Shown piece after piece: positions 28,843 to 52,081 of a stretch of 64,000 nucleotides of DNA. The stretch is from NCBI GenBank assembly GCA_046347635.1, contig JAXMFT010000003.1, positions 215,551 through 279,550 on the forward strand. The letters are read 5' to 3'. Source of the DNA: Burkholderiales bacterium. Lineage in GTDB: Bacteria; Pseudomonadota; Gammaproteobacteria; Burkholderiales; SG8-39. The position numbers and the translations under genes were made by a program. Below the pieces are notes generated by a model. The model did not search any database. It saw only the letters and a list, made by a program, of their open reading frames with translations, and was not told the DNA's origin. The first letter of the stretch is position 1; each line of letters begins with the position of its first letter.

Positions 28843-29835
28843 ATGGCGAAGATCTTTCTCACCCACCCGCCCGAGGCGCTCGCCAACTACTACGGGGACC
28901 GCGCCGTGGCCGGGCTGAAAGCACTGGGCGAGCTGCGCTTGAACGCCGCCGGGCGCGAGCTTTCGCAGGCGGAGCTCGCTGCGGCGGCGGGCGGCTGCGA
29001 GGTCATCGTCTCGTATCGACAGACGCCGGGCACGGCGGAGCTCTTTCGCTCGTGCCCCGGCCTCGTGGCGTTCGTGCGCTGCGCGATCGACATCCGCAAC
29101 GTGGACGTCGCGGCGGCGAGCGCCGAAGGAATTCTGGTCACGCAGGCGAGCGCCGGGTTCGTCGCGTCGGTGAGCGAATGGGTGATCGGCGCGATGGTCG
29201 ACCTCGGGCGGAACCTGACGGCGTCGACCCTGAGCTACCGCGCGGGAGAGGTCCCGAAGGCGCCGATGGGCCGCCAGCTCGAGGGCTCGACGCTCGCCAT
29301 CCTCGGCTACGGCCAGATCGGGCAACGGCTCGCGGCGCTCGCCGTCGCGCTCAAGATGCGCGTGCTCGTCTACGACCCGTACAAGAGCGTCGGGAACCGC
29401 GGCGTGGAGCAGTGCGACCTGCCGCGGGCCCTCGCGGAGTCGGACTTCGTCGCGTGCCTGGTGGTCGCCAACGAGGCAACCGAGAACCTGATGAATGCCG
29501 CGGCGTTCGCGCAGATGAAGCGGGGCGCGTACTTCATCAACGCGTCGCGCGGAAACCTCGTGGACGAGTCGGCGCTGCGCGCCGCGCTCGATTCCGGCCA
29601 CCTCGCCGGCTGCGCGCTGGACGTCGGACGCGCGCCCGACCAGATGCCGAGCCCCGAGCTCGCGCGCCATCCGAGGGTCGTCGCCACACCCCACTCCGCC
29701 GGCCTGACGCTCCCTGCGGTCGAGCACCAGGCGCTCGAGACGGTCGCGCAGGTGGCGGAGATCGTACGCGGGCGCGCACCCAAGGGATCGGTGAATGCCG
29801 ACCGCGCGACGCGGCTCGCGCGGTTGAACGGCTAG
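28843..29835 (+). CDS. D-isomer-specific 2-hydroxyacid dehydrogenase (NAD-binding)
   Basis: 330 aa with ILGYGQIGQRLA (a GxGxxG motif), INASRGNLVDESAL and ATPHSAG, a catalytic His region. Confidence 0.8.
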   Translation: MAKIFLTHPPEALANYYGDRAVAGLKALGELRLNAAGRELSQAELAAAAGGCEVIVSYRQTPGTAELFRSCPGLVAFVRCAIDIRNVDVAAASAEGILVTQASAGFVASVSEWVIGAMVDLGRNLTASTLSYRAGEVPKAPMGRQLEGSTLAILGYGQIGQRLAALAVALKMRVLVYDPYKSVGNRGVEQCDLPRALAESDFVACLVVANEATENLMNAAAFAQMKRGAYFINASRGNLVDESALRAALDSGHLAGCALDVGRAPDQMPSPELARHPRVVATPHSAGLTLPAVEHQALETVAQVAEIVRGRAPKGSVNADRATRLARLNG

Positions 29836-29854
29836 CTGCGGCGAGCGCCTGCGG

Positions 29855-29913
29855 CCGCCCCGCTTCGCCACCGTGTCGTCGCGGGACGCGACGATCACGA
29901 CGAAGCGCGGCGG
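29855..29913. terminator. Extended GC-rich stem-loop between convergent genes (possible bidirectional terminator, no U-tract)
   Basis: CCGCCCCGCTTCG (29855-29867) pairs 12/13 with CGAAGCGCGGCGG (29901-29913). The inner stem GTCGTCGCG/CGCGACGAT encloses a GGA loop. A second small hairpin, CCGGATC-gt-GATCCGG, lies at 29921-29937. Confidence 0.3.
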
Positions 29914-29943
29914 GGAAGTGCCGGATCGTGATCCGGTCGTCCG

Positions 29944-31917
29944 CTATGCCGGAATCTTGAGCCGGCTCTTGATGATCTTGCGCGTCGGCGTGAGCGGCAT
30001 CTCGGGCGTGATCACCAGCCGCTCGGGCAGCTTGGTCTTGGCGATGTTGTGCTGCACGAGAAAGTCCACCACCTCTTGCAGCGAGAGCGAATCCGCGCCC
30101 GGGCGCAGGCTCACGAAGCAGCACGCACGCTCGCCCAGCACGGGGTCAGGCATCGGCACGATTGCCGACTGGAGAATCTTCGGATGGGAATCGAGCAAGT
30201 CTTCGACGTCGCGCGGATTGAACTTGACGCCACCGCGGTTGATGATGTCCTTGTTGCGTCCGGTGATGGCGACGTTGCCCGCGGCGTCGATCCGCGCCAG
30301 ATCACCGGTCCGATACCAGCGGTCGGCCGTGAACGCCGACCGATTGGCGTCGTCGTTGTCGAAGAACCCCGGGAACAGCGAGCAGCCCCGCACCTGCAGT
30401 TCGCCTTCCTCGTTCGTCGCACAGGGCCTACCGTCGGCTGCGAGGACTCGCACCTCGGTGCCGGGGCTCGGCCGTCCCGCGCTTTCGGCTGCGACGTCGA
30501 GCGCATCGCCCGGCCGCGTGTAGAGCGCCCCTTGAGTTTCCGTCATGCCCCAGAGCTGCGTCACCGCACAGTCAGGCAGCTTCGCTTGGAGCCACCGCAT
30601 GAGCTCCGGCGGGCACGCGCTCCCCGACAGGATGACCAACCGCAGCGAGCCGAAGTCGTGCTTCTCGAACAATCCCTGCGCCCGGCAGGCGGCAAGGTGC
30701 GCCGGGCCGGCCCACAGGCCCGTAGGCCGCTCGCGCTCGATCGTGAGCGCGAGTTCCGGCGGAGAAAACACGGGAAGGAGCACCGCAGCCGCGCCCGCCG
30801 ACCAGGCGACGTGGAGGCTGTAGAGTCCGAACAGGTGCGAAAAAGGCGCGGCCGACAGGACCCGAGCGGCGCTCGTGACACCGTGTTCCGTCGTGCCCAG
30901 GCGTGCGTTCGACAGCATCGTGTGATAGCTGTGCGGAACCGCCTTGGGTGCCGAGGTCGTTCCGGAGGTGTACAGGAGCAGGAAGGGATCGCTCGCCGCC
31001 GGGGCCGGCTCGGACCGCACGTCGAGCGGCGGCGATGCTTCGATCAGCTCGGCAAGGGATAGCGTGCCTCCGATCTTTTCGCCGAAAGCGATCACGGTCT
31101 TCAGCGTGGGGATCGACGCCTTCATCGAGCAATACGCCTCCGCCGGGGACCAGTCCTTGCCCCGAGCGAGACAGATCGCCGCGGACGCACGCGCGTGCGA
31201 GAGCAGCGAGGCGAGCTCGCTGTCCCGATAGGCCAGATGAATCGGGCACATGACGGCACCGAGTCGGCAGATCGCCAGGTATGCGAGCACGAACTCGACC
31301 ACGTTGGGCAACTGCACCGCGACCACCTCGCCCTTCGCAACCCCGGCGAATCGCAGGCCGTGCGCCAGCCGCGCGGCGCGGTCCGCGAGCTCGCGCCAGG
31401 ATATCGTGACCGCGCCGTGGATCAGCGCTGGCGCTGCGGGCCGTTCTTCGGCATGGCGCGCGATCCACGCGCTGAGCGTGTCGTCTCCGCGCCACCAGCC
31501 GCGCCCGAGATACTCGCTCACCCGCTGCGGCTCGAACCCCATTGCGGCGCGCAGACGCAAGGCGTCCGGGCTGAAACGGAAGCGATCCTCGAGGCGCGTC
31601 ACCTTCTCCGCACGAAAGCGCCGGCCGCCGCCCAGGTCGAGCAGGTACGCCTGCCGTCCGGTCTGCAGCCGCCTGGATTCCTCGGTGTTGCGAATGAACA
31701 TGACCTGCTCGCGGGTGAGGCCGATCCGCTCCGCGATCTGCGCGTCGGTTAGCCCCATCGCCTCGCGCTGGCGCTCGATCTCGGCGAAGTCGAGCGTGCG
31801 CACCGGATCGCCCTCACGCACCTGAAGGTTGTGGCTCATCCCGAACACGACTTCGCCGAACGCCCGAATCAGCTCGTCGGTGATGCCGATCTGGTCACGC
31901 GTCAAGCCCCGCGCCAT
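29944..31917 (-). CDS. Acyl/aryl-CoA ligase (AMP-forming, DhbE/EntE-like core) with ~125-aa N-terminal extension
   Basis: ATG 31917 (MARGLTRDQIGITDELIRAF...) lies 4 nt after the stop of the upstream gene. The core motifs LLYTSGTTSAPKAV and YRTGDLARIDAAGNVAITGRNKDIINRGG are present. Residues 1-125 have no counterpart in standard ligases. Confidence 0.75.
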   Translation of the reverse strand: MARGLTRDQIGITDELIRAFGEVVFGMSHNLQVREGDPVRTLDFAEIERQREAMGLTDAQIAERIGLTREQVMFIRNTEESRRLQTGRQAYLLDLGGGRRFRAEKVTRLEDRFRFSPDALRLRAAMGFEPQRVSEYLGRGWWRGDDTLSAWIARHAEERPAAPALIHGAVTISWRELADRAARLAHGLRFAGVAKGEVVAVQLPNVVEFVLAYLAICRLGAVMCPIHLAYRDSELASLLSHARASAAICLARGKDWSPAEAYCSMKASIPTLKTVIAFGEKIGGTLSLAELIEASPPLDVRSEPAPAASDPFLLLYTSGTTSAPKAVPHSYHTMLSNARLGTTEHGVTSAARVLSAAPFSHLFGLYSLHVAWSAGAAAVLLPVFSPPELALTIERERPTGLWAGPAHLAACRAQGLFEKHDFGSLRLVILSGSACPPELMRWLQAKLPDCAVTQLWGMTETQGALYTRPGDALDVAAESAGRPSPGTEVRVLAADGRPCATNEEGELQVRGCSLFPGFFDNDDANRSAFTADRWYRTGDLARIDAAGNVAITGRNKDIINRGGVKFNPRDVEDLLDSHPKILQSAIVPMPDPVLGERACCFVSLRPGADSLSLQEVVDFLVQHNIAKTKLPERLVITPEMPLTPTRKIIKSRLKIPA

Positions 31918-31921
31918 GGCC

Positions 31922-32866
31922 TCAGCCCTCCCCCGCCTGCGGAGCGCGGGTCGCGGCCCGCAGCGATTCGGTTCGGCTGATCGGGTCGGCCTGCGGCGCC
32001 TGGGTCGCGAGAGGACAGACGCGCATGCATTCGAAGCACTGCGCAAACCACGCCCCCGATCCGGCCGAGACCTTGTACCAGAGCATCTTCCGGTCCGGAT
32101 CGAGCAACCCTTCCGCGCCGCGGGAGCGTACTTCGTCGCGCACCGCCTCGGCGAGCATCTTGGGAACGGTCTCGTACTCCTGTGTGAACTCCGCGCACGC
32201 GGCCATGTCGTAGCGCATCCGCTTCTGCCTGCCCCGGTCGTCGACTTCGCCGGCGAGGCACTGCGCCGGGCAGAACTTCATGCAGGGCGTCCGCCCGGTC
32301 GCGCGATACAGCGACACGCAGGAAGGGGCCGGGCAGGGGTTGTCCTTCATGGGCGCGTCCGGCGGCAACGCGAGCTCGGTGAACACCGACGCGTAATACA
32401 TGAATCCGAACTCCGGATGCAGCAGGATGTCGCCGGCAAAGGAGCGCGCACCGATGCCTGCGATCTCCGCGTGCAGCTTCAGGCTCTGCAGCGGTACGCG
32501 TGGTCCGCCCTCCGGATCCAGGTCCGGCGGCACGTAGGCCGAAGGCACGCCGAATTTCTGCTCGATGAAGAATGCGCAGCCATAGGCGACCGAGTACGCG
32601 CGCACCTCGGTCGAGCCCGAATACGCCATGGCCTTCGCCGGGAGCTGCCAGGCGCCGCGGGTCTGACCGCCCACCCCGAGCGAGATGACCGATTTCACGC
32701 GCGGCATCAGGTCCGTGGGTCGGTGGCCCGGGGGCGCGATGCGCTCCAGCACTGCGAGATCGGCGACGCCAACCGCAAGCGCGCCGCGCCGCTTGCAGTA
32801 GTCGACGATCGCCTGCTTAGCCGCCGCCGGATCGACCGGCGCGGCGCCCTCGCCCGGATGTCTCAT
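31922..32866 (-). CDS. QueG/reductive-dehalogenase-superfamily Fe-S protein, paralog A1
   Basis: 314 aa with RBS GAAGAGG. The N-terminal RRGALAVGVADL segment and LLHPEFGFMYYASVFTELALPPD resemble QueG. The Cys motifs are C-x4-C-x11-C-x3-C-x3-C and QCFECMRVCP. No Tat signal or TM segment is present. Confidence 0.65.
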   Translation of the reverse strand: MRHPGEGAAPVDPAAAKQAIVDYCKRRGALAVGVADLAVLERIAPPGHRPTDLMPRVKSVISLGVGGQTRGAWQLPAKAMAYSGSTEVRAYSVAYGCAFFIEQKFGVPSAYVPPDLDPEGGPRVPLQSLKLHAEIAGIGARSFAGDILLHPEFGFMYYASVFTELALPPDAPMKDNPCPAPSCVSLYRATGRTPCMKFCPAQCLAGEVDDRGRQKRMRYDMAACAEFTQEYETVPKMLAEAVRDEVRSRGAEGLLDPDRKMLWYKVSAGSGAWFAQCFECMRVCPLATQAPQADPISRTESLRAATRAPQAGEG

Positions 32867-32929
32867 ATCGCCTCTTCCGCGTTCACGCGCTGCGCAGGGC
32901 GGTGGCCCTCGACTTGGGAGCGGGCGCGC

Positions 32930-33895
32930 TCAAACGTGCCGCCGCCACTGCGGGCCGACCGGTTTCACAGCAATGGATCCTCGCTCGCGACCAAGCGTGA
33001 CGCCGGCAGGGAAGTCGTCCCGGCGGTGCGGCGAGGCCTGGACGGCGGCCGCATCCTCGCCCACCGGGCAGACATGCAGGCACTCCATGCAGCCGGTGAA
33101 CGCGCCCTGGCGCAGCACCGCGAGTCCTTGCCAGAGCTCACGGGTCGCTGCGCTGTCGACGAGTTGCTCCCGCTCCTCGCCGTGCGCGGCGAAGAGCGCC
33201 TTGAAGTGATCGACGAAAGCATCGGGACCGAAGGGATGCGCGCTCTTCAGGCACGCGGCCGCGTCGATTCCGCGCACCGCGGCGAGATCCGCGCCCGCGG
33301 CGGCGCGCAGCGGGATCGCCTTCTCGGGGCAGATCGCAGCGCAGCGGCCGCAAGCCTCGAGCCCGAGGCACAGCTCGGTCGCGAGCGGCGAATCGTGCTC
33401 GAGCGCGAGGTTGGTGAGCAGCCCTCCGAAATAGACGCGCGGGCCGTATTGAGGGGTGAGCACGGCGTTGTTCAGCCCCCACGTGCCCAGTCCCGCTTCG
33501 ACCGCGGCGGCGCGCAGCAGGCGTGAACCCTGTCCGGCCGGCGTGTTGCCCGCAGCGCTCGTCTCGCGCGTGAAATCGACGAACAGCGCGGGCAGGAGCG
33601 CGGCCATCGCGCCGCTGCGTTCCAGCCAATAGCCGAGCTCCCTTCCGGCGGTCTCCATGACCTGGGCGAGCTGGCCGCAAGAGAAGTGCTTCTGCCGCCG
33701 GTCGAGCGCCCCGCTCACGCCGTTCGGGATGTGCTTGCCGAGCACGAGCAGCGTCTTCAGCGTCGTGGAGACCGCCCCCGGCCGGTCTTCCGCCGGCAGC
33801 GTCGCATCCAGACGGTCGGTGCTCGCGAATCCCACCAGGTCGAATCCGCACTCGCGCGCGCGCGCCAGAACGCTCTCCTTGGTCAGCGCCGCCAC
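32930..33895 (-). CDS. QueG/reductive-dehalogenase-superfamily Fe-S protein, paralog B1
   Basis: C-terminal 321 codons of the 639-aa ORF. GTG 33895 is preceded by GGAG and lies 2 nt after the A2 stop. ECGFDLVGFAS, GLGTWGLNNAVLTPQYGPRVYFGGLLT, CLGLEACGRCAAICP and GCMECLHVCP support the call. Confidence 0.6.
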   Translation of the reverse strand: MAALTKESVLARARECGFDLVGFASTDRLDATLPAEDRPGAVSTTLKTLLVLGKHIPNGVSGALDRRQKHFSCGQLAQVMETAGRELGYWLERSGAMAALLPALFVDFTRETSAAGNTPAGQGSRLLRAAAVEAGLGTWGLNNAVLTPQYGPRVYFGGLLTNLALEHDSPLATELCLGLEACGRCAAICPEKAIPLRAAAGADLAAVRGIDAAACLKSAHPFGPDAFVDHFKALFAAHGEEREQLVDSAATRELWQGLAVLRQGAFTGCMECLHVCPVGEDAAAVQASPHRRDDFPAGVTLGRERGSIAVKPVGPQWRRHV

Positions 33896-33897
33896 GT

Positions 33898-34899
33898 TCA
33901 GGTCTCCAGAGCCTTGCCGAGTTCGCTGTCGCGGTTGAAGATCTTCACGCGCTTGGCGGGCGGTCCGAGCCAGTTGATCTTGTGGCGCCCGTCCTGCTTC
34001 GCGTGCCGCACGCCCGGCCGGGGCAGGTCCTCGGCCCGCTCGGGGGCCTTGTACATGCCCTTGTAGTCTTCGCCCACCGGACAGACGTACATGCACTCGA
34101 AGCACGCCGCGAACGCGCCGACCTTCGAGTTGACCGACTGCCACCAGTCGCGCACGTACGGGCTCTCCAGCACGGCATCGGCATCGAACGGCCGGTCGGA
34201 GTTGAGCACGCTCTCCAGATTGAGGTGGATGGACCGGATGCCGATGCGCTCGGCGCCGAGCGAGCACTGGCGCTTGTTGAGCGCGCGGTATCCGCGCAGG
34301 CTCGCGTCCTGGGCCACCTCGCGCGGGATGGCATCGGGGGGACAGACGACGCCGCAGCGGCCGCAGGGCAGGCCCGGACAGAGGTCGCGCGTCATCGGCG
34401 GATCGGGCTCCAGCTCCACGTCGGTCATGACGCAGCCGAGGTAGACGCGCGACGCGTAATTCGGCGAGAGGAAGTTCAGGTTGAGCCCGACCGTCCCGAT
34501 CCCGGCTTCCTCGCAGACCCATTTCAGGTCCAGCGTCCCCATGGGTTTGCGCGGATCGAGATCGAGAAACGCCGCCTCGGGCGGCGGCGCGACGCCCAGA
34601 TGGCCGCGCCGCTCGAGCCAGTCGACCAGTTCCATCTGCAGGCGTTCGATGTCGTCCATCGCCATGTGCCCGTTGTGCGACTGGAGCGGAACGTGGCTGG
34701 TGGCGAAGGCCCCGCTCATCATGTGCCGGTAGAAGGCGACGATGCTGCGGTAGCCGAGGCCGGTGCTGGACGGCTTCTGCAGGTTCGGCACCTTGGTCTC
34801 GAACGCCGCAACTGCGACGACTCCCACGCCATCGGCACCGCGTTCGCAAGCGAACGCCTTGAGGTCCTCCTTCAACTGCGATGCTTGCGGATCAGGCAT
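33898..34899 (-). CDS. QueG/reductive-dehalogenase-superfamily Fe-S protein, paralog A2
   Basis: 333 aa with ERGADGVGVVAV, AGIGTVGLNLNFLSPNYASRVYLGCVMTDVELEPD, CPGLPCGRCGVVCP and ACFECMYVCP. Confidence 0.65.
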   Translation of the reverse strand: MPDPQASQLKEDLKAFACERGADGVGVVAVAAFETKVPNLQKPSSTGLGYRSIVAFYRHMMSGAFATSHVPLQSHNGHMAMDDIERLQMELVDWLERRGHLGVAPPPEAAFLDLDPRKPMGTLDLKWVCEEAGIGTVGLNLNFLSPNYASRVYLGCVMTDVELEPDPPMTRDLCPGLPCGRCGVVCPPDAIPREVAQDASLRGYRALNKRQCSLGAERIGIRSIHLNLESVLNSDRPFDADAVLESPYVRDWWQSVNSKVGAFAACFECMYVCPVGEDYKGMYKAPERAEDLPRPGVRHAKQDGRHKINWLGPPAKRVKIFNRDSELGKALET

Positions 34900-34941
34900 G
34901 GATGAAGATCCGTCCAGGGAGCGTTGTGCCAGGGATCCTGG

Positions 34942-35895
34942 TCATTCGGGATGCCGCCGCTGCGGCTTCGATTCGACCGTGACCACGCCATCGGCGACGT
35001 GGCGGTGCACTCCGTCCGGCAGGTCCGCCTGCCGATGCGGCGAGCCCGAGATCGACGCGTAATCGGCACCGACCGGGCATACATCCTCGCAGCGCATGCA
35101 GGACGTGTACGCCCCATCCTTGAGGAAGGTCGCCTCCTGCCACAGCTCGCCGGTGGTGCGGTGCCGGATGAGCTTGTTCACGGCTGCGCGATCGGGCGCC
35201 GCGAACACCGTCGACAGGTAGCGCACGAATGCATCGGCCCCGAAGGGCTGCGCGCTGCGCCGGCAGGCCGCGCTATCCAGGCCGCGGATGGAACCGAGCG
35301 TCGCACCCTGCGGCGCGCGCAGCGGGATCGCGTGCTCCGGGCAGATCGCGGCGCAACGGCCGCAAGCTTCCAGCCCCGGGCAGAGCTCGGCCGAAAGCGG
35401 CTTCCCCTCGGGGAGCGCACAGTCGGTGAGCAGCACCGCAAAGTGCACGCGCGGCCCGAACTCTGGCGTGAGCACCATGTCGTTGAGCCCGAACGTCCCG
35501 AGGCCGGCCTGTACCGCGGCCACGCGCGCTGCGAGCGCCCCCTGGCCGGCCGGGGTGAGGTCCCCTGCATCGCGCGAGCCGAAATCGATCGCCGCGGGTG
35601 CGAGCGGCATCGCCGCCGCCCCGGCCAGCTCGATCGCCGCAGCCAGATGGACCGCGGCCTCGCCCAGCAGCTTCAGCGAGCGCGCCGCCGCGTACTGCTT
35701 GGTGCCCGGATGACCGGCCCACATGACGCCGCTCGGCATGTGCCGCGCCAGCACCACGACGCGCGTCATCTGTTCGGAGATGCGCGCAAGCCGCCGAGCC
35801 TCGGGCAGTTGCCGGTCGACGGCAGCGGCCGACGCGACGCCCAGCCGGTCCACGCTGTGGCGCAGCGCGATGCGTTCCAGGTCATCAAGTTTCAC
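34942..35895 (-). CDS. QueG/reductive-dehalogenase-superfamily Fe-S protein, paralog B2
   Basis: C-terminal 317 codons of the 346-aa ORF. GTG 35895 is preceded by GAGGGA. GLGTFGLNDMVLTPEFGPRVHFAVLLT, CPGLEACGRCAAICP and SCMRCEDVCP are present. It is the closest paralog of B1. Confidence 0.6.
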   Translation of the reverse strand: MKLDDLERIALRHSVDRLGVASAAAVDRQLPEARRLARISEQMTRVVVLARHMPSGVMWAGHPGTKQYAAARSLKLLGEAAVHLAAAIELAGAAAMPLAPAAIDFGSRDAGDLTPAGQGALAARVAAVQAGLGTFGLNDMVLTPEFGPRVHFAVLLTDCALPEGKPLSAELCPGLEACGRCAAICPEHAIPLRAPQGATLGSIRGLDSAACRRSAQPFGADAFVRYLSTVFAAPDRAAVNKLIRHRTTGELWQEATFLKDGAYTSCMRCEDVCPVGADYASISGSPHRQADLPDGVHRHVADGVVTVESKPQRRHPE

Positions 35896-35994
35896 GGCGG
35901 AATTCCCTCGTCGGCCCAAGCGGCAGTGCCGGGAGCAGCCGGCGCGGCGAGTCCGCCGCTCCGTTCCGCCCGTTCGCCCCACGCGGTCGCACGT

Positions 35995-36615
35995 TCATCT
36001 CACGCGCAGGCCGTCGATCAACGTGCGGCAGAAGCTCCGCGCCACGCGCTCGACCGAGACGCCGGGCTCGCGCCCGGCCCAGAACGACACCGAATTGCAC
36101 AGGCCGAGCAGCGCGAGCGTTGCCATGCGCGCGTCGACCGCCGCATCGATTTCGCCGGCTTGCACCCCCTCGCGTACCAGCTCTTCCAACTCCCGCTCGT
36201 AGGCGCGCGCGAGACGCGAGACGAGCGCTTTCGCTTTCCCGGTCAGATGCTGGCGCATGAATACGAACGAATAGGCGTAGTGCTGGCGACTGACGAAGGG
36301 CGTGAGGTGCGCGCGGATGACGGCCTCGATCTTCGCGAGCGGCGCGTCCTTGGCGGCGCGAATCGTCCTGATGTTGCGCAAGAAGGTCTCGCCGCCGAAG
36401 GCGCAAATCGCGCCGAGCAGCGCATCCTTGGAACGAAAGTGATGATAGATGCTGCTCTGCCGGATTCCGATGCGCTCGGCGACCTCGCGCATCGAGCAGC
36501 CATGATACCCAGCGCGCGCGAACACCTCCGCGGCGCCTTCGATCAGCTCGAATTTCCGGCCGCTGAGATCGGCGGCCGTCTCGGCGCCGGTCGGCTGGAC
36601 CGCGGCTTCGCTCAT
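35995..36615 (-). CDS. TetR/AcrR-family transcriptional regulator (TetR-1)
   Basis: 206 aa. RKFELIEGAAEVFARAGYHGCSMREVAERIGIRQSSIYHHFRSK is the HTH. Its start overlaps the stop of the upstream ligase (ATGA at 36612-36615). It is a paralog of the TetR at 48592..49236. Confidence 0.85.
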   Translation of the reverse strand: MSEAAVQPTGAETAADLSGRKFELIEGAAEVFARAGYHGCSMREVAERIGIRQSSIYHHFRSKDALLGAICAFGGETFLRNIRTIRAAKDAPLAKIEAVIRAHLTPFVSRQHYAYSFVFMRQHLTGKAKALVSRLARAYERELEELVREGVQAGEIDAAVDARMATLALLGLCNSVSFWAGREPGVSVERVARSFCRTLIDGLRVR

Positions 36616-43675: not shown

Positions 43676-43688
43676 AGGAGAGATCGCC

Positions 43689-46933: not shown

Positions 46934-48558
46934 GCGAGGTCACCGAAGGCCGGGCCGTGCCGCGCTGGGGCATGGTGATCGACCTCAACCGCTGCGTCGG
47001 CTGCCAGACGTGCACCATCGCCTGCAAGCACGCCAACGACACTACGCCGGGCGTGCAGTGGCGCCGCGTGCTCGACGTCGAGCAGGGCGCCTTTCCGGAC
47101 GTCCAGCGCCTGTTCCTGGTGGTCGGCTGCCAGCACTGCGCGGATCCGCCCTGCGTGCCGGTCTGCCCGACCGGCGCGACGCGCCAGCGCGCCGATGGCC
47201 TGGTGACGATGAACTACGACGTGTGCATCGGCTGCGCCTACTGCGCCGTGTCCTGTCCCTACGAGGCGCGCACCATCGTGCACGACCCCAAGGGCTACTA
47301 CGGCGGCGCGCTGACGCGGCAGGAGCAGGCAACCGCGCATCCCGAGCGCCGCGGCGTCGCGCAGAAGTGCACCTTCTGCCAGGGCCGCATCGAGGACGGC
47401 ATTGCGCAGGGCCTGACCCCGGGCGTCCACCCCGAGGCGACGCCGGCCTGCTCCGCCGCGTGCATCGCGCAAGCGATCCACTTCGGCGACTTCAACGACG
47501 CCGGGAGCAACGTGTCGCGGCTGCTCCGCGAGCAGCCCAGCCTGCAGCTCAACGCCGGGGTCGGCACCGACCCGCAGATCAAGTACCTCTACACCACGCC
47601 CGCGGTGCCAGGCCGGCCGGCCGGAGTCCAGGCCGACGAGGAAGAGCGCCTCGCCGATCCGTTCAACCCGCTGGTCGGGTCGCTGCAGAAGTTCTGGGAC
47701 TGGCGCGCCGCGATGAACTGGATCCTGGGCGGGATCGGCAGCGGCCTGGCGATCGCCACCGGGCTCGCGCTCGGGTCCGGCGCGCTCGACCCGCGCCTCG
47801 CGCCCGTGCTGTTCGTCGCCGCCGCGGCGATCGTGTCGGTGGGCCTGTTCTGCGTGTTCCTGAAGATCGGCCGGCAGGCGCGCTTCTGGCGCGCGGCGCT
47901 GCGCCCGCACACCTCGTGGATGTCGCGCGAGCTCTATGCGGCGATTGCGTTCTACGCGTCGGTGCTCGCCGCCCTCGTCGCGCCGGGACCGGGCCCGTTC
48001 GCGCTCGCGCCGCTTTCCGCCGCGGCGTTCCTCCTCTGCCAGGCGAAGATCCTGCACCTCGCGCGCGGCATTCCGGCGTGGCGCGCACCGCTCGTGCCGT
48101 GGTTGCTTCTCGCAAGCGGGCTGCTCGAGGGCTGCGGAGCGCTCGCGGCGGCGCCGCTGCTGGCCGGCGGCGCGGGCGTCGCGTGGGCCGGCGGTGCGAT
48201 CATCGGGCTCGCCGTCGTCAACGCGCTGCTGTGGCGCGCCTACGTCGGGACCTCCCGCGCGCGCGGCATCGGTCCGCTCGCGCGTCGCGTCCTCGCCCGG
48301 GTAACCGCGCCGCTGCACGCGATCGGGCACGCGCTGCCCGCTGTGCTGGCGGCCGCCGCGGCGTTCGTCCCCGCCGCGTCCGGCGTCTTGCTGGCGCTAG
48401 CGGGCCTCGCCGCAATCGCCGGCGGCGCGCTGTGGAAGTTCGCGCTCGTCGTGCGCGCGGGGTACACCCAGGGCTTCGAGCTCTCGCACCTGCCCCAGCG
48501 CGGCTCCGGCCGCCGCGCAGCGCCGCCGCGCCTGGGCGGCTGGACGCGTTCGGCATGA
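46930..48558 (+). CDS. Fusion of a four-cluster ferredoxin-type subunit (DmsB-like) with a ~8-TM membrane anchor (DmsC-like)
   Basis: GTG 46930 overlaps the alpha-subunit stop (GTGA). The Cys groups are CVGCQTCTIAC, CQHCADPPCVPVCP, CIGCAYCAVSCP and CTFCQGR...C. From about residue 260 onward I count about 8 hydrophobic helices. Confidence 0.75.
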   Translation: MSEVTEGRAVPRWGMVIDLNRCVGCQTCTIACKHANDTTPGVQWRRVLDVEQGAFPDVQRLFLVVGCQHCADPPCVPVCPTGATRQRADGLVTMNYDVCIGCAYCAVSCPYEARTIVHDPKGYYGGALTRQEQATAHPERRGVAQKCTFCQGRIEDGIAQGLTPGVHPEATPACSAACIAQAIHFGDFNDAGSNVSRLLREQPSLQLNAGVGTDPQIKYLYTTPAVPGRPAGVQADEEERLADPFNPLVGSLQKFWDWRAAMNWILGGIGSGLAIATGLALGSGALDPRLAPVLFVAAAAIVSVGLFCVFLKIGRQARFWRAALRPHTSWMSRELYAAIAFYASVLAALVAPGPGPFALAPLSAAAFLLCQAKILHLARGIPAWRAPLVPWLLLASGLLEGCGALAAAPLLAGGAGVAWAGGAIIGLAVVNALLWRAYVGTSRARGIGPLARRVLARVTAPLHAIGHALPAVLAAAAAFVPAASGVLLALAGLAAIAGGALWKFALVVRAGYTQGFELSHLPQRGSGRRAAPPRLGGWTRSA

Positions 48559-48591: not shown

Positions 48592-49236
48592 CTAGGTCCG
48601 GCGGCGCGTCCGGGCGCGCTGGGTGCGGGGTCCGGCACGTCCTGCGACTTCCCGTTCGAACAATCCGTGGCAGATCAGCCGCGTGAACGTCTCGGCCACC
48701 TGCGCCAGGCTCACGTCGGTCACCGCATGCGGCCAGCGCGCGACCGAGTTGCACATGCCGAGCACCGCCCGCACGGCCAGCGGCGAGTCGAGGGTCGCAG
48801 GGATGGTGCCTTCGCGCTTGCCCTCCTCCAGCAGCGCGCACCACAGCGCCTCGTAGGCGCGCGATTGCGCGTCGAGCGGGTAGCGGGCGCGGCGCGGCAG
48901 GTCGCGCCGCTGGAAGAGGAAAGCATGCACGTAGAAGCGCTTCTCGAGCAGCGGCTCGAGGTGCGCTCGCACCGCGCGGCGCACCCGCTCCTCGGCAGGC
49001 AGCGCGAGCGCCACGACCGCCTCCAGCCGCTGCACGAACTCGCCGATGCCGTAGCGGCAGATCGCCTCCAGCAGATTCGACTTGGAGGGGAACCAGTAGT
49101 ACAGGGCGGCCGGCTTGACGCCGCAGCGGGCGGCGATCCGGCGCATGCTCGCCCCGGGGTAGCCGCGCGCGGCGAACTCCGTCGCCGCAACGTGCAGCAG
49201 TTCAAACTTCCTGTCGGTGCTGGCCTTGCGAGGCAT
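48592..49236 (-). CDS. TetR/AcrR-family transcriptional regulator (TetR-2)
   Basis: 214 aa. RKFELLHVAATEFAARGYPGASMRRIAARCGVKPAALYYWFPSK is the HTH. It shares AHL.P, LG.CNSV..W and other blocks with TetR-1. Confidence 0.85.
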   Translation of the reverse strand: MPRKASTDRKFELLHVAATEFAARGYPGASMRRIAARCGVKPAALYYWFPSKSNLLEAICRYGIGEFVQRLEAVVALALPAEERVRRAVRAHLEPLLEKRFYVHAFLFQRRDLPRRARYPLDAQSRAYEALWCALLEEGKREGTIPATLDSPLAVRAVLGMCNSVARWPHAVTDVSLAQVAETFTRLICHGLFEREVAGRAGPRTQRARTRRRT

Positions 49237-49250
49237 ATTGCGTTTTCCTG

Positions 49251-49260
49251 AACGATCGTT
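49251..49260. promoter_or_regulatory. Perfect 10-bp palindrome AACGATCGTT in the 35-bp TetR-2/rdhA divergent spacer (candidate TetR operator)
   Basis: Read directly from the sequence. The AACGATC core also occurs twice (38303-38309 and 38356-38362) in the divergent region upstream of the TetR-1 operon. Confidence 0.4.
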
Positions 49261-49271
49261 AAACTAACGCG

Positions 49272-50519
49272 ATGGGAGAGAGGCTGACCGTCGACAACCC
49301 CCCGAGCGCCGAGGGCCCGTGGCGCGAGCGCGGCCCGGTGACCGGCCCGAAGGACGCGGCCTGCGGCTTCGAGGTGACGGAGAATTTCGAGCGCTTCAAC
49401 CAGTCCAACGACATCTATACGCGCGGCCAGTGGGACGCGCGCATTCGCTCCGAGAAGGTGCTCAACTGGTTTCGCGGAATGTTCCGCACCGGACTGGGGG
49501 CGCGCAACGCCGAGGGCTATTCGGTGCGCGACTTCGCGCTGCGCAACGCGGGCTGGATGGGTGCCAACCTGACCATCCAGCGCAGCCTGCACCTGGGTCG
49601 CACCGACGGCTTCCTCGACTACATCCGGCCCTATTCCGAGCCCAATCCGGAGAAATATCCGGTCGAATCGCCCGCGGCGATGAGCGAGGAGGTCAAGCGC
49701 GTGGCGCGCCTCTTCGGCGCCGACGACGTGGGCATCACGCAATACGATCCGCGCTGGCATTACACCGCGAGCTTCTCGCCCAAGACCCTTGAGGAGAAGC
49801 CATATGCGATCCCCGACGGCCTGCCCAACGTCATCGTTGTCGTCACGGCCATGCACTACGAAGCGGTGCAGTCCTATCCCTCGGCCACGGCCGGGGTGGC
49901 GGTCGGCCACGGCTACTCGCGCGACTGCGAGCTCGTGCAGGCGATCGCCACCTATCTCCTGAACCTCGGCTACCGGGCGGTCGCCACCGTCAACGACACC
50001 TCACTCGCCATCCCCTACGCCATCCAGGCCGGGCTGGGCGAATACGGCCGCAACGGCCTGCTGATCACCAAGGATTTCGGCCCACGCGTGCGCATCGGCC
50101 GCATCCACACCGACGTGCCGCTCGCCCACGACCAGCCGATCCGCTTCGGCGTGCGCGAGTTCTGCGACACGACCTGCCGGCGCTGCGCCTCGGAGTGCCC
50201 TCCGAAGGCCATCTCCTTCGGCAAACCCACCGAGGAAGTACCGGGCCGTTCGCTGATCAAGGGCGTGCGCAAGTGGCAGGTCGACCCGGAGAAGTGTTTC
50301 AAGTTCTGGGTCAACCAATCGACCGAATGCGGCGTGTGCATGCGCGTGTGCCCCTACAACAAGGATACCTCGAGGTGGGCGTCGCGGACCTGGTACCGCC
50401 TGTGGCGCCGCATGGCTGCCTCGCCGTTGAAGCGCTTCGCCCTCTGGCTGGACGTGAAGCTCGGATACGGCAAGCGCGTCAAGCCGCGCGAGTACTGGCG
50501 CAAGTTCAGCTCGACCTGA
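49272..50519 (+). CDS. Reductive dehalogenase (RdhA) family protein, cytoplasmic type
   Basis: 415 aa with FERFNQSNDIYTR, GLGEYGRNGLLITKDFGPRVRIGRIHTD, FCDTTCRRCASECPPKAI and KCFKFWVNQSTECGVCMRVCPYN (two Fe-S cluster motifs). There is no twin-arginine signal and no adjacent rdhB-like gene. Confidence 0.8.
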   Translation: MGERLTVDNPPSAEGPWRERGPVTGPKDAACGFEVTENFERFNQSNDIYTRGQWDARIRSEKVLNWFRGMFRTGLGARNAEGYSVRDFALRNAGWMGANLTIQRSLHLGRTDGFLDYIRPYSEPNPEKYPVESPAAMSEEVKRVARLFGADDVGITQYDPRWHYTASFSPKTLEEKPYAIPDGLPNVIVVVTAMHYEAVQSYPSATAGVAVGHGYSRDCELVQAIATYLLNLGYRAVATVNDTSLAIPYAIQAGLGEYGRNGLLITKDFGPRVRIGRIHTDVPLAHDQPIRFGVREFCDTTCRRCASECPPKAISFGKPTEEVPGRSLIKGVRKWQVDPEKCFKFWVNQSTECGVCMRVCPYNKDTSRWASRTWYRLWRRMAASPLKRFALWLDVKLGYGKRVKPREYWRKFSST

Positions 50520-50545
50520 TCGAATCCGACCGGATCGAAGCGAGG

Positions 50546-52081
50546 ATGCAGAACCTCGTCCGCGCATTCCGGAACACCGTTCGGCACAACGGGCCGCGCC
50601 CCGCGCTTCTCGACGCTTCGCGCACGTTCACCTGGAACGAGCTCGGCGAGCGCGTGGCACGAGCCGCCGGCGCCCTGCACCATCTCGGCATCCGGCAGGG
50701 CGCGCGCTTCGCGATCCTGTCGCGCAACGGCTTTCGCCACGAGGAGCTGAAATGGGCCGGCCTGTGGCTCGGCGCGGTGCCGGTGCCGATCAACTTCCGC
50801 CTCGCGCCGCCGGAGATCGCGCAGATCCTGGCCGACGCCGGCTGCGAGCGGGTTCTGGTCGAAGCGCCCTTCGCGCCGATGCTCGGCCAGTCCGCGCTCG
50901 CCGCGTGGCAGGCGGGCGCCGTCCCGATCGGCGAGGCCGCGGGCACAAGCGGCGCGCCTTACGAGGCGCTGCTCGCCGCCGCCGACCCGCTGCCGCCCCA
51001 TGACGCCGGGGCGGCGGACGACGCGATCCTTCTCTACACCGGCGGAACCACCGGGCGCAGCAAGGGCGTGCGCCTGTCGCACGCCAACATCCTCGCCTGC
51101 GCCCACGCCTTTGCGGTGGGCACCGGGGCACGCCGCGACCAGGTCTACTTGCACGCCGCGCCGATGTTTCACTCCGCGGACCTGCTCGGGCTCGCCTGGC
51201 TGCTGCAAGGCGCCCCGCAGTGCTATCTGCCGCAGTTCTCCCCCGCCGCGTTCCTGGACGCGCTCCGGCGCTACAGCGTGGGTGCCGTGGTGACGGTGCC
51301 CACGATGCTGATCGCGACGATCTCGGACCCTGCGTTCGCGCAGGCCGACGCCGCCAGCCTGCGCGTGCTGATCTACGGCGCCGCGCCCATGGCGGTGGAG
51401 TGGATCAGGCGCGTCGCGCAGGCCTTTCCCCAGGTCGATCTCTACAACTGCTACGGCCTGACCGAGACCGCACCTGACCTCACGATTTTCGACGCGCAGG
51501 AGTTCCGTGCCGCCATCGGCTCCGCCGCGCCACACCTGACTTCGGTCGGCAAGCCCAACCTCGTGAACGAGCTCAAGGTGGTCCGGCCCGACGGCAGCGA
51601 GTGCGCCACCGATGAGGCCGGCGAACTGCTCGCACGGGGTCCCAATGTCATGCCCGGTTACCTGAACCGCCCGGAGGAGACGAGCGCGGCGCTGCGCGAG
51701 GGCTGGCTGCACACCGGGGACGTCGCGCGCATCGACGCCAACGGCTATGTGTACCTGCTCGACCGGCTGAAGGACATGGTGATCACCGGCGGCGAGAACG
51801 TCTATTCCTCGGAGGTGGAGGCGGTGCTGCACCGGCACCCGGACGTCGCCGAGGCCGCGATCATCGGCGTGCCGGACCCGAAGCTGGGCGAAGCGGTGAT
51901 GGCCGTGATCGTGCCGCGCAGCGGCGCAAACCCCGATCCGGAGCAGATCTCGGCGCATTGCCGCGCCGCGCTGGGCGGGTTCAAGGTGCCGCGGCGCTTC
52001 AGCTTCGTCCAGGCGCTCCCCAAGAGCGCGCTGGGCAAGGTGCTCAAGGCGGAGTTGCGCAGCCAAGTACGCGCGGGGTAA
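50546..52081 (+). CDS. Acyl-CoA ligase (AMP-forming)
   Basis: ATG 50546 (MQNLVRAFRNTVRHNG...) is preceded by GCGAGG. The motifs LLYTGGTTGRSKGV and WLHTGDVARIDANGYVYLLDRLKDMVITGGENVYS are present. Confidence 0.8.
   Translation: MQNLVRAFRNTVRHNGPRPALLDASRTFTWNELGERVARAAGALHHLGIRQGARFAILSRNGFRHEELKWAGLWLGAVPVPINFRLAPPEIAQILADAGCERVLVEAPFAPMLGQSALAAWQAGAVPIGEAAGTSGAPYEALLAAADPLPPHDAGAADDAILLYTGGTTGRSKGVRLSHANILACAHAFAVGTGARRDQVYLHAAPMFHSADLLGLAWLLQGAPQCYLPQFSPAAFLDALRRYSVGAVVTVPTMLIATISDPAFAQADAASLRVLIYGAAPMAVEWIRRVAQAFPQVDLYNCYGLTETAPDLTIFDAQEFRAAIGSAAPHLTSVGKPNLVNELKVVRPDGSECATDEAGELLARGPNVMPGYLNRPEETSAALREGWLHTGDVARIDANGYVYLLDRLKDMVITGGENVYSSEVEAVLHRHPDVAEAAIIGVPDPKLGEAVMAVIVPRSGANPDPEQISAHCRAALGGFKVPRRFSFVQALPKSALGKVLKAELRSQVRAG

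Follow-up and report, generated by a model that had tools for sequence, protein, structure and literature searches.

A mosaic cluster of acyl-CoA ligases and RdhA/QueG-like redox modules with a probable role in CoA-dependent carboxylic acid catabolism

The locus raises the question of what a dense 23-kb set of ligase, reductase-like and transport genes does, and whether it was inherited as one unit. The cluster occupies positions 28843-52081 of a 64,000-nucleotide stretch of DNA (the window). Its host is an uncultured betaproteobacterium. Genes were called with guidance from GC3, and families were assigned by Pfam/NCBIfam scans. All 20 genes of the initial annotation were found in this way. 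The cluster contains four AMP-forming ligases, four QueG/RdhA-like proteins (Q1-Q4), one true RdhA, FdxA, DctPQM, an FlK-type thioesterase, a Mo-bisPGD subunit, a fused FeS/membrane subunit and two TetR regulators, as follows.

28843-29835, plus strand: D-isomer-specific 2-hydroxyacid dehydrogenase (PF02826, 163.6 bits; PF00389)
29944-31917, minus strand: LigN, AMP-forming acyl-CoA ligase with an N-terminal extra domain of ~150 aa (PF00501, PF13193)
31922-32866, minus strand: Q1, of the Q1 subfamily of a new RdhA/QueG-like family (TIGR00276, 21.8 bits against a cut-off of 200)
32930-33895, minus strand: Q2, RdhA/QueG-like (TIGR00276, 46.8 bits; TIGR02486, 41.4 bits; both far under cut-off)
33898-34899, minus strand: Q3, RdhA/QueG-like (TIGR00276, 43.1 bits)
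34942-35982, minus strand: Q4, RdhA/QueG-like (TIGR02486, 44.4 bits, under cut-off)
35995-36615, minus strand: TetR1 regulator (PF00440, PF17932, PF08359)
36612-38204, minus strand: LigB, AMP-forming acyl-CoA ligase, first gene of the Q operon (PF00501, PF13193)
38423-38746, plus strand: FdxA-type 7Fe ferredoxin (NF045490, 164.6 bits against a cut-off of 135; DUF3470)
38890-39921, 40044-40547 and 40727-42058, plus strand: TRAP transporter DctP, DctQ and DctM (PF03480, PF04290, PF06808)
42110-43675, plus strand: LigC, acyl-CoA ligase, paralog of LigD
43689-44105, plus strand: FlK-type hotdog thioesterase (PF22636, 103.5 bits against a cut-off of 27)
44132-46933, plus strand: MoA, cytoplasmic Mo-bisPGD catalytic subunit (PadB-type by homolog annotation)
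46930-48558, plus strand: MoBC, fused four-cluster FeS subunit and membrane anchor (FeS part matching DsrO, QrcC, ArrB, TtrB and DmsB models)
48592-49236, minus strand: TetR2 regulator (PF00440, PF17932)
49272-50519, plus strand: RdhA, cytoplasmic non-respiratory reductive dehalogenase homolog (TIGR02486, 181.4 bits against a cut-off of 160.35)
50546-52081, plus strand: LigD, acyl-CoA ligase co-operonic with RdhA (PF00501, PF13193)

The paralogies proposed earlier were upheld, with 37% identity between the two TetR_N+TetR_C_24 regulators and 49.7% between LigC and LigD, and genes for ring reduction, ring cleavage or beta-oxidation were indeed absent within 28843-52081. Some details of the inventory changed. 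The N-extended ligase is present, but its most likely start codon is ATG 31917, which a Shine-Dalgarno sequence precedes, rather than position 32046. The second Q gene shares the frame of open reading frame 32930-34849 and begins near 33895. The Q4 start is uncertain because the orthologs in locus L007 and on contig P0123 have 317 aa, and the LigB start at ATG 38204 is consistent with orthologs of 527-530 aa. The 2-hydroxyacid dehydrogenase, inside the range but missing from the title of the initial annotation, is the edge of the cluster and of uncertain membership. Its GC3 of 0.92 is between the flank and cluster values, it is preceded by a terminator-like hairpin at 28796-28821 after coxM, and the 2-Hacid_dh genes near two RdhA clusters elsewhere are unrelated to it.

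Q1-Q4 are paralogs of 314-346 aa, each with two Cys clusters and weak QueG/RDH matches. Q2 and Q4 are 46% identical, and Q3 is 28-30% identical to both. Assignment as QueG or RdhA by family thresholds was rejected, with scores under the TIGR00276 and TIGR02486 cut-offs. Q1 has 773 homologs, for which no Pfam domain is on record, and more than 120 clusters at 73-91% identity; Q2 has only 140 homologs at E<1e-5 among 5.8e9 clusters. The AF2 model of Q1 (pLDDT 71) matched only QueG, PceA, NpRdhA and MMACHC, and Foldseek matched that of Q2 (pLDDT 90) only to QueG, RdhA and MMACHC (TM 0.40-0.49). All eight Fe-S Cys residues are invariant in both Q subfamilies, and the corrin-loop motif AGxG...TPxxGPRV is kept in the family. 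The fold and the motif predict cobalamin binding; neither a cobalamin riboswitch nor any other Rfam element was found. The residue aligned with PceA Arg305 is Tyr in Q2 and Q3, as in QueG, and His in Q4, so that dehalogenation chemistry is not implied for Q2-Q4.

Of 82 loci, 75 have the Q genes in tandem, as 61 pairs, 13 triplets and one quadruplet, Q3 being the middle gene of a Q4-Q3-Q2 triplet conserved in 13 loci, and di-Q and tri-Q fusion proteins exist among the relatives. A PaaK-like ligase lies directly 3' of the Q genes in 48 of the 82 loci. Other frequent neighbours are Liv-type ABC transporters, benzoate-CoA-ligase-like genes and enoyl-CoA hydratases; one triplet is flanked by a PaaK-like ligase and BcrAD/HGD-D genes, and one in Chloroflexi by IclR and a 4HBT thioesterase. 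Nearly all of the relatives are from MAGs, and no published description of them was found. These results indicate that Q1-Q4 are a distinct, little-known and uncharacterised branch of the vitamin-B12-type reductase (RdhA/QueG) superfamily.

RdhA aligned with PceA structures at E = 2.8e-52 (8q4h) and 4.9e-46 (4uqu) and with the catabolic NpRdhA at E = 5e-31, and it has Tyr, Asn and Arg at the positions of PceA Y246, N272 and R305. LigD is directly 3' of RdhA in 11 of 18 related contigs (54-71% identity). Full-length LigN orthologs (65-83% identity) follow Q1 in five loci, and in three others the N-domain is a separate ORF right after Q1; HTH matches of this domain were sub-threshold only. The best solved relatives of LigC are feruloyl-CoA synthetase 8wev and fatty-acyl-CoA synthase 8weu (E about 1e-83). 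The Q operon in L007 and four RdhA clusters have FdxA orthologs (72-77% identity) as neighbours. Likewise, TRAP genes adjoin the Q operon in L007 and on contig P0123, and RdhA clusters in three loci.

The nearest solved relatives of TetR1 include FadR/YsiA, KstR2 and DarR, and both regulators resemble acyl-CoA-sensing TetRs. The placement of TetR1 between LigB and Q4 is kept in three lineages. The only two promoter-like sites within 28000-47900 lie back to back at the LigB/FdxA divergent region. The following elements were located at the divergent promoters.

38292-38320, plus strand: promoter-like site, FdxA/TRAP operon; contains the putative TetR1 operator CCTAACGAACGATCAGTAGG (core 38302-38312)
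49247-49263, no strand assigned: putative TetR2 operator, palindrome TGAACGATCGTTA, in the 35-bp TetR2/RdhA intergenic region

The putative TetR1 operator, which holds an exact GAACGATCRKT match at 38302, is kept in the corresponding intergenic region of L007. Exact GAACGATCRKT sites occur at the two divergent promoters only; the estimated chance expectation is about 0.03 per window. The TetR2 palindrome 5' of RdhA has at most one mismatch in 11 loci with TetR2 and at least three in six loci without it; its conservation is limited to loci with TetR2. These results suggest that the two TetRs have related putative palindromic operators that share a core, at both divergent promoters.

MoA has more than 3000 homologs, those at 70-79% identity being JGI-named "phenylacetyl-CoA:acceptor oxidoreductase", so that at annotation level the Mo part corresponds to a known type of enzyme. 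The copy of MoA on the window's own contig (97% identical, tblastn) has recorded PF00384 and PF01568 domains, and the similarity of MoA to PhsA, ArrA and DmsA is weak. MoBC, whose reading frame overlaps that of MoA by GTGA, has 16 Cys in four 4-Cys motifs and at least six hydrophobic segments from residue 265 to 490. The FeS/anchor fusion also follows MoA in four other loci. Elsewhere the Mo pair is usually alone, with varied neighbours including SDR, UbiD and XDH-type genes, which do not point to phenylacetate. MoA lacks a hydrophobic segment and an RR motif, RdhA and Q1-Q3 have no hydrophobic segment, Q4 has a single marginal one, and no TAT motif was found in any of these proteins. This topology fits CoA-bound substrates.

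In composition and in evolutionary origin the cluster is a mosaic, and its modules also occur apart. GC3 along its sub-blocks is 0.78-0.89, then 0.94, then 0.90-0.91, against 0.96-0.98 in the flanks, so that co-location could be partly historical. The module LigB-TetR1-Q4-Q3-Q2-Q1-LigN was found in three lineages. TetR2, divergent from RdhA-LigD, recurs in about 13 further contigs (56-65% identity), where Q1-type genes, a ligase, TRAP and FdxA often come next; the continuation is either Q1-LigN or two Q1-like genes with a LigC-like ligase. The Q1-LigN pair is highly conserved and in some cases mobile. In L145, the Mo pair directly follows it in a co-directional Q1-LigN-MoA-MoBC-MFS array with gaps of 4-38 bp. 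Parts of different blocks thus adjoin elsewhere in rearranged form, but every block also stands alone. The initial annotation had taken independent blocks elsewhere as evidence against it, and this finding counts partly that way. What stands of its functional reading is carboxylic acid uptake, CoA activation and unusual redox steps in a peripheral pathway, but not one co-inherited unit. The CoA link was strengthened, as pairing with CoA ligases recurs across many other genomes for the Q family and for RdhA.

On balance, we read the region as a catabolic cluster for one or more carboxylic acids as CoA thioesters, assembled from separately transferable ligase/redox modules. Aromatic or aryl-alkanoic acids, which may be halogenated, are the most probable substrates. 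The most serious competitor, although unlikely, is accretion of unrelated modules with independent substrates at a recombination or horizontal-transfer hotspot in a cox/xdh-type gene set. It would account for the GC3 steps, for Block 1 (LigB to LigN) occurring elsewhere without RdhA and without the Mo pair, for the Mo pair alone in three other genomes, for Q1-LigN alone between toxin-antitoxin genes or amid transposases and an integrase, and for the lack of the FlK gene (GC3 0.94) in the ~90% identical relative L110. However, the module types re-associate in different orders on unrelated contigs, which is unexpected if they are functionally unrelated. The paralogous TetRs with the common core of their putative operators, the LigC/LigD paralogy, and the company that FdxA and TRAP keep elsewhere with both Q and RdhA clusters also argue against it.

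It is improbable that Block 2 (FdxA to MoBC) is an anaerobic phenylacetate (Pad) peripheral pathway, with import and ligation of phenylacetate, alpha-oxidation by PadBCD to phenylglyoxylate and the other genes as accessories. The JGI name of the MoA homologs, the cytoplasm-facing Mo enzyme, the ligase upstream and the thioesterase between ligase and MoA would fit, and a 933-aa protein with a 542-aa fused FeS/membrane protein matches the 93 + 27 + 26 kDa that Rhee and Fuchs reportedly gave in 1999 for phenylacetyl-CoA:acceptor oxidoreductase. However, padEFGHI and the PaaK-type PadJ are absent from the window, the ligase is FadD/feruloyl-CoA-synthetase-like and differs in GC3 from the Mo pair, the neighbours of that pair elsewhere are varied, the PadC and PadD functions are fused, and no NCBIfam model matched the Mo enzyme above cut-off. 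That Q1-Q4 are epoxyqueuosine reductases for tRNA modification, or plain electron-shuttling ferredoxins, is very unlikely. Many homologs are JGI-named "epoxyqueuosine reductase QueG" or "ferredoxin", QueG is the best fold match, the Tyr of Q2 and Q3 is QueG-like, and the LigN N-domain has weakly HTH-like features. Nevertheless, TIGR00276 gave 22-47 bits against 200 over ~70 residues, DUF1730 was not detected in the Pfam scan, and PDB QueG chains have 370-437 aa against 314-346 aa here. Four paralogs share one operon with a TetR and a pair of CoA ligases; PaaK-like ligases, ABC transporters and thioesterases are recurrent neighbours; and a mere ferredoxin would not need the corrin-loop motif. 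Least credible of all is organohalide respiration with RdhA as terminal reductase. In its favour, RdhA matches respiratory PceA (E = 3e-52) better than NpRdhA, and a quinone-linked membrane-bound FeS subunit is nearby. However, RdhA has no TAT signal, hydrophobic segment or adjacent RdhB-like gene, it is co-operonic with a CoA ligase under TetR in those further contigs as well, and it is the Mo subunit, rather than RdhA, to which the membrane subunit is translationally coupled.

Returning to the catabolic reading, gene content, synteny and operators suggest the following chemistry. Acids would be imported by the TRAP system and converted to thioesters by the four ligases, and the thioesters, or the acids, would release both FadR-like repressors from their related operators. 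Low-potential electrons would come from FdxA and reach soluble enzymes of two types, both with the cobalamin/2x[4Fe-4S] fold. One is RdhA, PceA-like but cytoplasmic, with the catalytic Tyr, Asn and Arg kept. The other is Q1-Q4, probably as hetero-oligomers, which probably perform two-electron reductive eliminations of halide, hydroxyl or a similar leaving group from activated substrates. An acyl-CoA would be oxidised by the cytoplasm-facing Mo-bisPGD enzyme with its fused FeS/membrane subunit, with electrons passing to quinone, and the FlK-type thioesterase would release the product. The best reading is thus CoA-dependent (aryl)carboxylic acid catabolism that combines ferredoxin-driven reductions with a quinone-linked, PadBCD-like oxidation. 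By analogy with PadBCD, the latter step might convert arylacetyl-CoA to arylglyoxylyl-CoA. The Pad pathway has been described (PMC4453571, PMC5109826); in its reference organism PadC and PadD are separate genes (PMC5109826), whereas in the window the corresponding parts are fused.

The window is included in the JGI metagenome contig Ga0131077_10000696 (3300009873; 326 kb, ~72% G+C), and the best matches of its proteins were in MAGs of Burkholderiales and other betaproteobacteria. Genes were called by third-position GC with the frames checked by hand, because spurious frames swamp raw ORF lists. The initial annotation had described a 23-kb cluster of five RdhA/QueG-like enzymes, four CoA ligases, a TRAP transporter, a ferredoxin and a Mo-oxidoreductase under two TetR regulators. 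Gene calls and family scans located all of these elements, as follows:

28843-29835: D-2-hydroxyacid dehydrogenase, left edge of the cluster
29944-31917, minus strand: LigN, AMP-forming acyl-CoA ligase with an extra N-domain
31922-32866, minus strand: Q1, QueG/RdhA-like protein
32930-33895, minus strand: Q2, QueG/RdhA-like protein
33898-34899, minus strand: Q3, QueG/RdhA-like protein
34942-35982, minus strand: Q4, QueG/RdhA-like protein
35995-36615, minus strand: TetR1, regulator in the Q operon
36612-38204, minus strand: LigB, AMP-forming acyl-CoA ligase
38423-38746, plus strand: FdxA, 7Fe ferredoxin
38890-42058, plus strand: DctP/Q/M TRAP transporter
42110-43675, plus strand: LigC, AMP-forming acyl-CoA ligase
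43689-44105, plus strand: FlK-type thioesterase
44132-46933, plus strand: MoA, Mo subunit
46930-48558, plus strand: MoBC, fused FeS/membrane subunit, with a GTGA overlap with MoA
48592-49236, minus strand: TetR2, regulator divergent from RdhA
49272-50519, plus strand: RdhA
50546-52081, plus strand: LigD, AMP-forming acyl-CoA ligase

The paralogy claimed earlier was also confirmed, with 37% identity between TetR1 and TetR2 and 49.7% between the ligases at 42110 (LigC) and 50546 (LigD). DctP, DctQ and DctM of the TRAP transporter are all present (PF03480, PF04290 and PF06808 in consecutive genes). The nearest solved relative of its binding protein was 4p56, whose ligand may be mandelate. FdxA scored 164.6 bits against NF045490 (cut-off 135) and also contains DUF3470.

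The cluster splits a cox/xdh-type gene set, the halves of which lie at window 23786-28777 and 52159-56065. On the upstream side are XdhC- (minus strand), CoxS-, CoxL- and CoxM-like genes, with a terminator-like hairpin at the end (28796-28821), and on the downstream side are MoxR/CoxD, Ldh_2 (minus strand), VWA CoxE and CoxG. The CoxL-like protein scored below the cut-offs for CO dehydrogenase (653 vs 991), glyceraldehyde dehydrogenase and 4-hydroxybenzoyl-CoA reductase. XDH-family genes were also observed near Q pairs in about eight other loci and beside the Mo pair in the related locus L092. GC3 was 0.96-0.98 in the flanks, 0.92 in the 2-hydroxyacid dehydrogenase, 0.78-0.89 from LigN through LigC, 0.94 in FlK, MoA and MoBC, and 0.90-0.91 in TetR2, RdhA and LigD. 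These steps along the cluster argue for a foreign and stepwise origin. No tRNA genes were found in the window, no direct repeats flanked the cluster (every repeat found in the window reflects paralogy), and no empty site lacking the cluster was found, the contigs with an identical CoxM protein having the same junction. The argument for foreign origin thus consists of GC3 and synteny only.

The initial annotation had also raised the question of whether the block is conserved as a unit. In this study, we found that the 23-kb block is not kept as a whole, since its modules occur separately and the FlK gene is missing from a relative of ~90% identity with otherwise the same gene order. The operon LigB-TetR1-Q4-Q3-Q2-Q1-LigN and the adjoining TRAP genes are kept in two other betaproteobacterial lineages at ~72-87% identity, one of which also keeps FdxA-DctPQM-LigC. 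TetR2|RdhA-LigD was found in part or whole in 18 related metagenome contigs (54-79% identity), with TetR2 in ~13 and LigD in 11. In 10 contigs the RdhA unit was followed by a Q1 ortholog and LigN (72-75% and 65%, respectively), or by two Q1-like paralogs and a LigC-like ligase. TRAP genes and FdxA (72-76%) were often found near RdhA units elsewhere. Q1-LigN is a self-contained pair, which stands alone between toxin-antitoxin genes in one setting and elsewhere directly precedes MoA-MoBC and an MFS transporter gene, the genes being 4-38 bp apart. At L147 (61-15911), the pair, with a truncated ligase, was found amid a resolvase, a phage-type integrase, a DDE transposase and an IS21-type rve/IstB pair, and at L007 an HTH_38 (IS30-like) gene directly follows LigN. 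These mobile-element genes are evidence that the modules are mobile.

The N-domain of LigN (~100 aa; window 31600-31917) forms part of the ligase chain in the window and at L007, L074, L105, L106, L145 and L146. Three Rhodospirillales MAG loci instead encode it as a small ORF of its own directly after Q1 (L071 6693-6986; L073 13198-13470; L075 14992-15285). This alternation provides a Rosetta-stone link between Q1 and its ligase. The domain had no family or PDB match, and gave only sub-threshold matches to HTH_3/HTH_23. At L105, a 786-aa FAD_binding_3 and Oxidored_FMN fusion (3295-7436) lies beside another ligase, near TetR2|RdhA-LigD...Q1-LigN. It resembles 2-aminobenzoyl-CoA monooxygenase/reductase with its ligase, which hints at aryl-CoA 'hybrid' pathways in the neighbourhood. 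A 277-aa ORF between LigD and Q1 in the same locus was discarded as an Arg-rich antisense artefact.

Promoter-like sites in 28000-47900 numbered only two, which lie back to back in the intergenic region between LigB and FdxA. The exact motif GAACGATCRKT occurred only in this region (38302) and in the 35-bp TetR2|RdhA spacer (49250), against ~0.03 occurrences per window expected by chance from composition. The putative TetR1 operator is CCTAACGAACGATCAGTAGG, a longer site that is kept in L007, and that of TetR2 is the palindrome TGAACGATCGTTA in the TetR2|RdhA spacer. Upstream of RdhA, the palindrome was conserved with at most one mismatch in 11 loci with TetR2 and was absent (at least 3 mismatches) from six loci without TetR2. 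A one-mismatch core, GAACGATCGTA, at 43664-43674 overlaps the last LigC codons, 15 bp 5' of FlK, and coincides with the GC3 step between the sub-blocks, and could represent either a third operator or a junction remnant. Both regulators have TetR_N and the TetR_C_24/TetR_C_4 ligand domain, and among the closest relatives of TetR1 with a solved structure are DarR and two acyl-CoA-binding regulators, FadR/YsiA and KstR2. Neither a cobalamin riboswitch nor any other Rfam family was found in the window.

Q1, Q2, Q3 and Q4 scored 21.8, 46.8, 43.1 and 31.2 bits, respectively, against TIGR00276 (QueG; cut-off 200), and at most 44.4 bits against TIGR02486 (RdhA; cut-off 160). These matches span only ~70 residues, covering the loop AGxG...TP.(F/Y)GPRV and the first Cys motif. 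A Pfam scan found no DUF1730 (PF08331) in any of the four, and PF13486 and the Arg at PceA position 305 were likewise not found. The residue at that position is Tyr in Q2 and Q3, as in QueG, and His in Q4, and Q1 has a divergent loop in this region. By these family measures, Q1-Q4 are classed as neither QueG nor RdhA. The fold was recognizable in AlphaFold models (pLDDT 90 for Q2 and 71 for Q1), for which Foldseek returned only QueG, PceA/NpRdhA and MMACHC from the PDB (probability 1.00, TM 0.36-0.49). Eight Fe-S cysteines, forming two [4Fe-4S] motifs, are invariant in both Q subfamilies, and the proteins may bind cobalamin.

Q1-Q4 resemble QueG (5d08, 5d6s) in having a cobalamin-type fold, two 4-Cys motifs and the AGxG...TP.(F/Y)G loop. 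However, they differ in the low TM, in family scores far under the cut-off and in the spacing of the first cluster motif (C-x5-C-x2-C-x3-CP in Q2; CPAPxCV-x9-TPCxxxCP in Q1). Moreover, the Q genes occur as two to four tandem paralogs or fused repeats, almost always near CoA ligases, and tRNA-related genes are not their company. In the window, four tandem copies share an operon with a TetR and two ligases, instead of the single-copy gene expected for a tRNA-acting enzyme. A true QueG function was rejected on account of the TIGR00276 scores, the lack of DUF1730 and the ligase context. A 350-aa tRNA-synt_1c protein, presumably of the glutamyl-queuosine tRNA(Asp) synthetase type, is encoded at window 3089-4141, 25 kb from the QueG-like genes; this closeness is probably a coincidence.

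Q2/Q4-type proteins are rare (140 at E<1e-5 in 5.8e9 clusters), and Q1-type proteins are commoner and strongly conserved (773, with >120 clusters 73-91% identical). An exhaustive profile search gave 163 representatives at E<1e-30 and 1565 at E<1e-10. It included chains with two Q-like repeats (670-678 aa; P0241, P0242) and with three (~730-810 aa; P0274, P0277, P0281, P0292 and others), which mirror pair and triplet operons. In the databases, Q relatives are unnamed or called 'ferredoxin' or 'epoxyqueuosine reductase', and our literature search on QueG-like/RdhA-like proteins found no description of the family. Among PLSDB plasmids, Q2 had QueG-level matches only.

A scan of GTDB species genomes gave 166 Q relatives, and the loci of the best 80 were all in MAGs. 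They belong to Chloroflexota, Acidobacteriota, Gemmatimonadales, Methylomirabilota/Rokubacteria, Tectomicrobia, many Rhodospirillales and other Alphaproteobacteria, Burkholderiales and one Halobacteriales archaeon. Tandem Q genes were present in 75 of 82 loci, as 61 pairs, 13 triplets (order Q4-Q3-Q2) and one quadruplet. The commonest neighbour was a divergent PaaK-like ligase, directly 3' in 48 of the 82 loci, and Liv-type ABC transporters, benzoate-CoA-ligase-like genes and enoyl-CoA hydratases were also frequent. In Chloroflexi, a Q triplet lies between IclR and a 4HBT thioesterase. The triplet at L009 (6632-15338) has a PaaK-like ligase to one side and, to the other, genes of the benzoyl-CoA-reductase or 2-hydroxyacyl-CoA-dehydratase type (two BcrAD_BadFG and three HGD-D); the locus further encodes enoyl-CoA hydratases, an aldehyde dehydrogenase, a UbiX-like flavoprotein and a 4HBT_2 thioesterase. 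The tandem paralogs and natural fusions argue for hetero-oligomers, and the steady company of ligases and thioesterases argues for acyl-CoA-linked substrates.

A flavo-FeS protein of ~1175-1280 aa was also observed (L007 15146-18670, L098 5037-8570, L100 3797-7642, and L113). It adjoins FdxA or Q/RdhA clusters in three lineages (61-72% mutual identity), contains Pyr_redox_2 and Fer4_20, and looks like a GltD-like plus PDR-like 'glutamate synthase beta/2-polyprenylphenol hydroxylase'. This protein is a candidate NAD(P)H-dependent electron donor, and the 64-kb window encodes no homolog of it. At L007 it is followed by a 1182-aa POR/DUF6537 (IOR-like) protein.

We tentatively propose, as a possibility that we hold with some doubt, that the RdhA-QueG superfamily of cobalamin/[4Fe-4S] proteins has a third functional branch, made up of the Q proteins. 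These would be soluble reductases working as hetero-oligomers, assembled from pairs, triplets, quadruplets or fused di-/tri-domain chains, and would act on CoA-activated aromatic or other carboxylic acids. Their reaction might be a new reductive elimination, such as dehydroxylation, deamination, dehalogenation or epoxide reduction of aryl-CoA, unassigned among B12 enzymes. Members of the family would occur widely among uncultured Proteobacteria, Chloroflexota, Acidobacteriota, Methylomirabilota and others, with the highly conserved Q1-LigN pair as a mobile minimal unit whose ligase may dock on the reductase via the extra N-domain. RdhA and QueG are the sole characterised activities of this cobalamin fold, to which the Q proteins would add a further branch. 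As they occur in many uncultured soil, groundwater and marine lineages, almost always with CoA ligases, this partnership suggests that the turnover of aromatic or other carboxylic acids includes a reductive step not recognised so far.

The product of the separate RdhA gene (415 aa) scored 181.4 bits against TIGR02486 (cut-off 160.35) and was nearer to respiratory PceA (E = 2.8e-52) than to NpRdhA (E = 5e-31). Two Fe-S motifs are present (Fer4_7 and Fer4_16, residues 300-363). In an ungapped HMMER alignment, Y215, N241 and R274 matched the active-site residues Y246, N272 and R305 of PceA. RdhA has no RR motif at its N-terminus and no hydrophobic segment, and no RdhB gene lies beside it, the neighbours being TetR2 and a ligase. 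These features indicate a cytoplasmic, non-respiratory RdhA, and organohalide respiration was rejected as the role of the cluster on the same grounds. RdhA aligns with PceA (4uqu, 8q4h) across the corrinoid and FeS core and keeps Tyr/Asn/Arg, but has neither the TAT signal nor the RdhB of PceA. NpRdhA/BhbA share with it the cytoplasmic location and a catabolic setting with a TRAP transporter; however, the window RdhA has neither their vestigial N-terminal domain nor their fused reductase. It also differs from characterised RdhAs in its constant acyl-CoA ligase partner, for which we know of no precedent among them. It resembles the 'simplified cytosolic' type of ~395 aa (PMC12219181), in a classification that takes QueG as outgroup only. 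The RdhA-ligase pair bears on non-respiratory dehalogenation in non-specialist bacteria. The exact RdhA sequence was indexed in 265 blocks of a public assembly collection, from many sequencing runs, which suggests that the organism, or the gene, is common in the sampled environments.

MoA contains Molybdopterin and Molydop_binding domains (PF00384 and PF01568 on record for the 97% identical tblastn copy on L001, the window's own contig), and has no 4-Cys N-terminal domain and no TAT motif. MoBC has four 4-Cys motifs and at least six hydrophobic segments. The missing TAT motif and the topology of MoBC place the catalytic site on the cytoplasmic side, as a CoA-ester substrate would require. Homologs of MoA at 70-79% identity are named 'phenylacetyl-CoA:acceptor oxidoreductase' by JGI, and no NCBIfam model scored above its cut-off on MoA or MoBC. 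As a two-gene unit, MoA-MoBC is very widespread (>3000 homologs, of which the best 120 are 68-88% identical), and it mostly occurs without the other modules of the cluster. PLSDB plasmids held no relative of the Mo subunit above 30% identity.

The Pad pathway comprises PadJ, PadBCD and PadEFGHI (PMC4453571, PMC5109826). Like the membrane-bound Mo-FeS enzyme PadBCD of Thauera/Aromatoleum, the window pair has a large Mo-bisPGD subunit with FeS and membrane parts, faces the cytoplasm and has a ligase upstream. In contrast, the counterparts of PadC and PadD are fused in the window pair, neither a PaaK-type padJ nor padEFGHI was found in the 64-kb window or beside the Mo pair in L092, L137, L138 and L145, and its neighbours elsewhere are varied. 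These differences count against strict PadBCD membership.

Taken together, it is somewhat probable that this is a CoA-dependent peripheral catabolic cluster built of ligase-plus-redox modules. FdxA would drive its reductases, of two cobalamin-fold kinds, with electrons flowing from the ferredoxin; the Mo pair might carry out a quinone-linked, PadBCD-like oxidation; and the two FadR-like TetRs would control the cluster. The main alternative, that the modules are merely co-located and share no pathway, is compatible with their separate occurrence and with the GC3 steps. The module types nonetheless re-associate repeatedly, in differing arrangements, and we consider mere co-location rather unlikely. 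The window unites all module types of such a catabolic cluster: the Q quadruplet, Q1-LigN, RdhA-ligase, FdxA, TRAP, the Mo enzyme and two TetRs with operators. It also offers experimental handles: ligands could be screened with the binding protein, inducer biosensors built from the TetRs and operators, and substrates profiled with the ligases.

CoA-mediated reductive dehalogenation and dehydroxylation of aromatic acids, such as 3-chlorobenzoyl-CoA and 4-hydroxybenzoyl-CoA reduction, are known. The proposed pathway would follow the same logic, in which a thioester is formed and a ring substituent is then removed reductively with electrons from ferredoxin. However, to our knowledge, the known aryl-CoA reducers are benzoyl-CoA reductases or Mo-flavo-FeS enzymes of the xanthine-oxidase family, whereas the candidates in the cluster have the RdhA/QueG fold. 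The cluster as a whole is a variation on known CoA-dependent aromatic acid catabolism, and its new element is the Q family.
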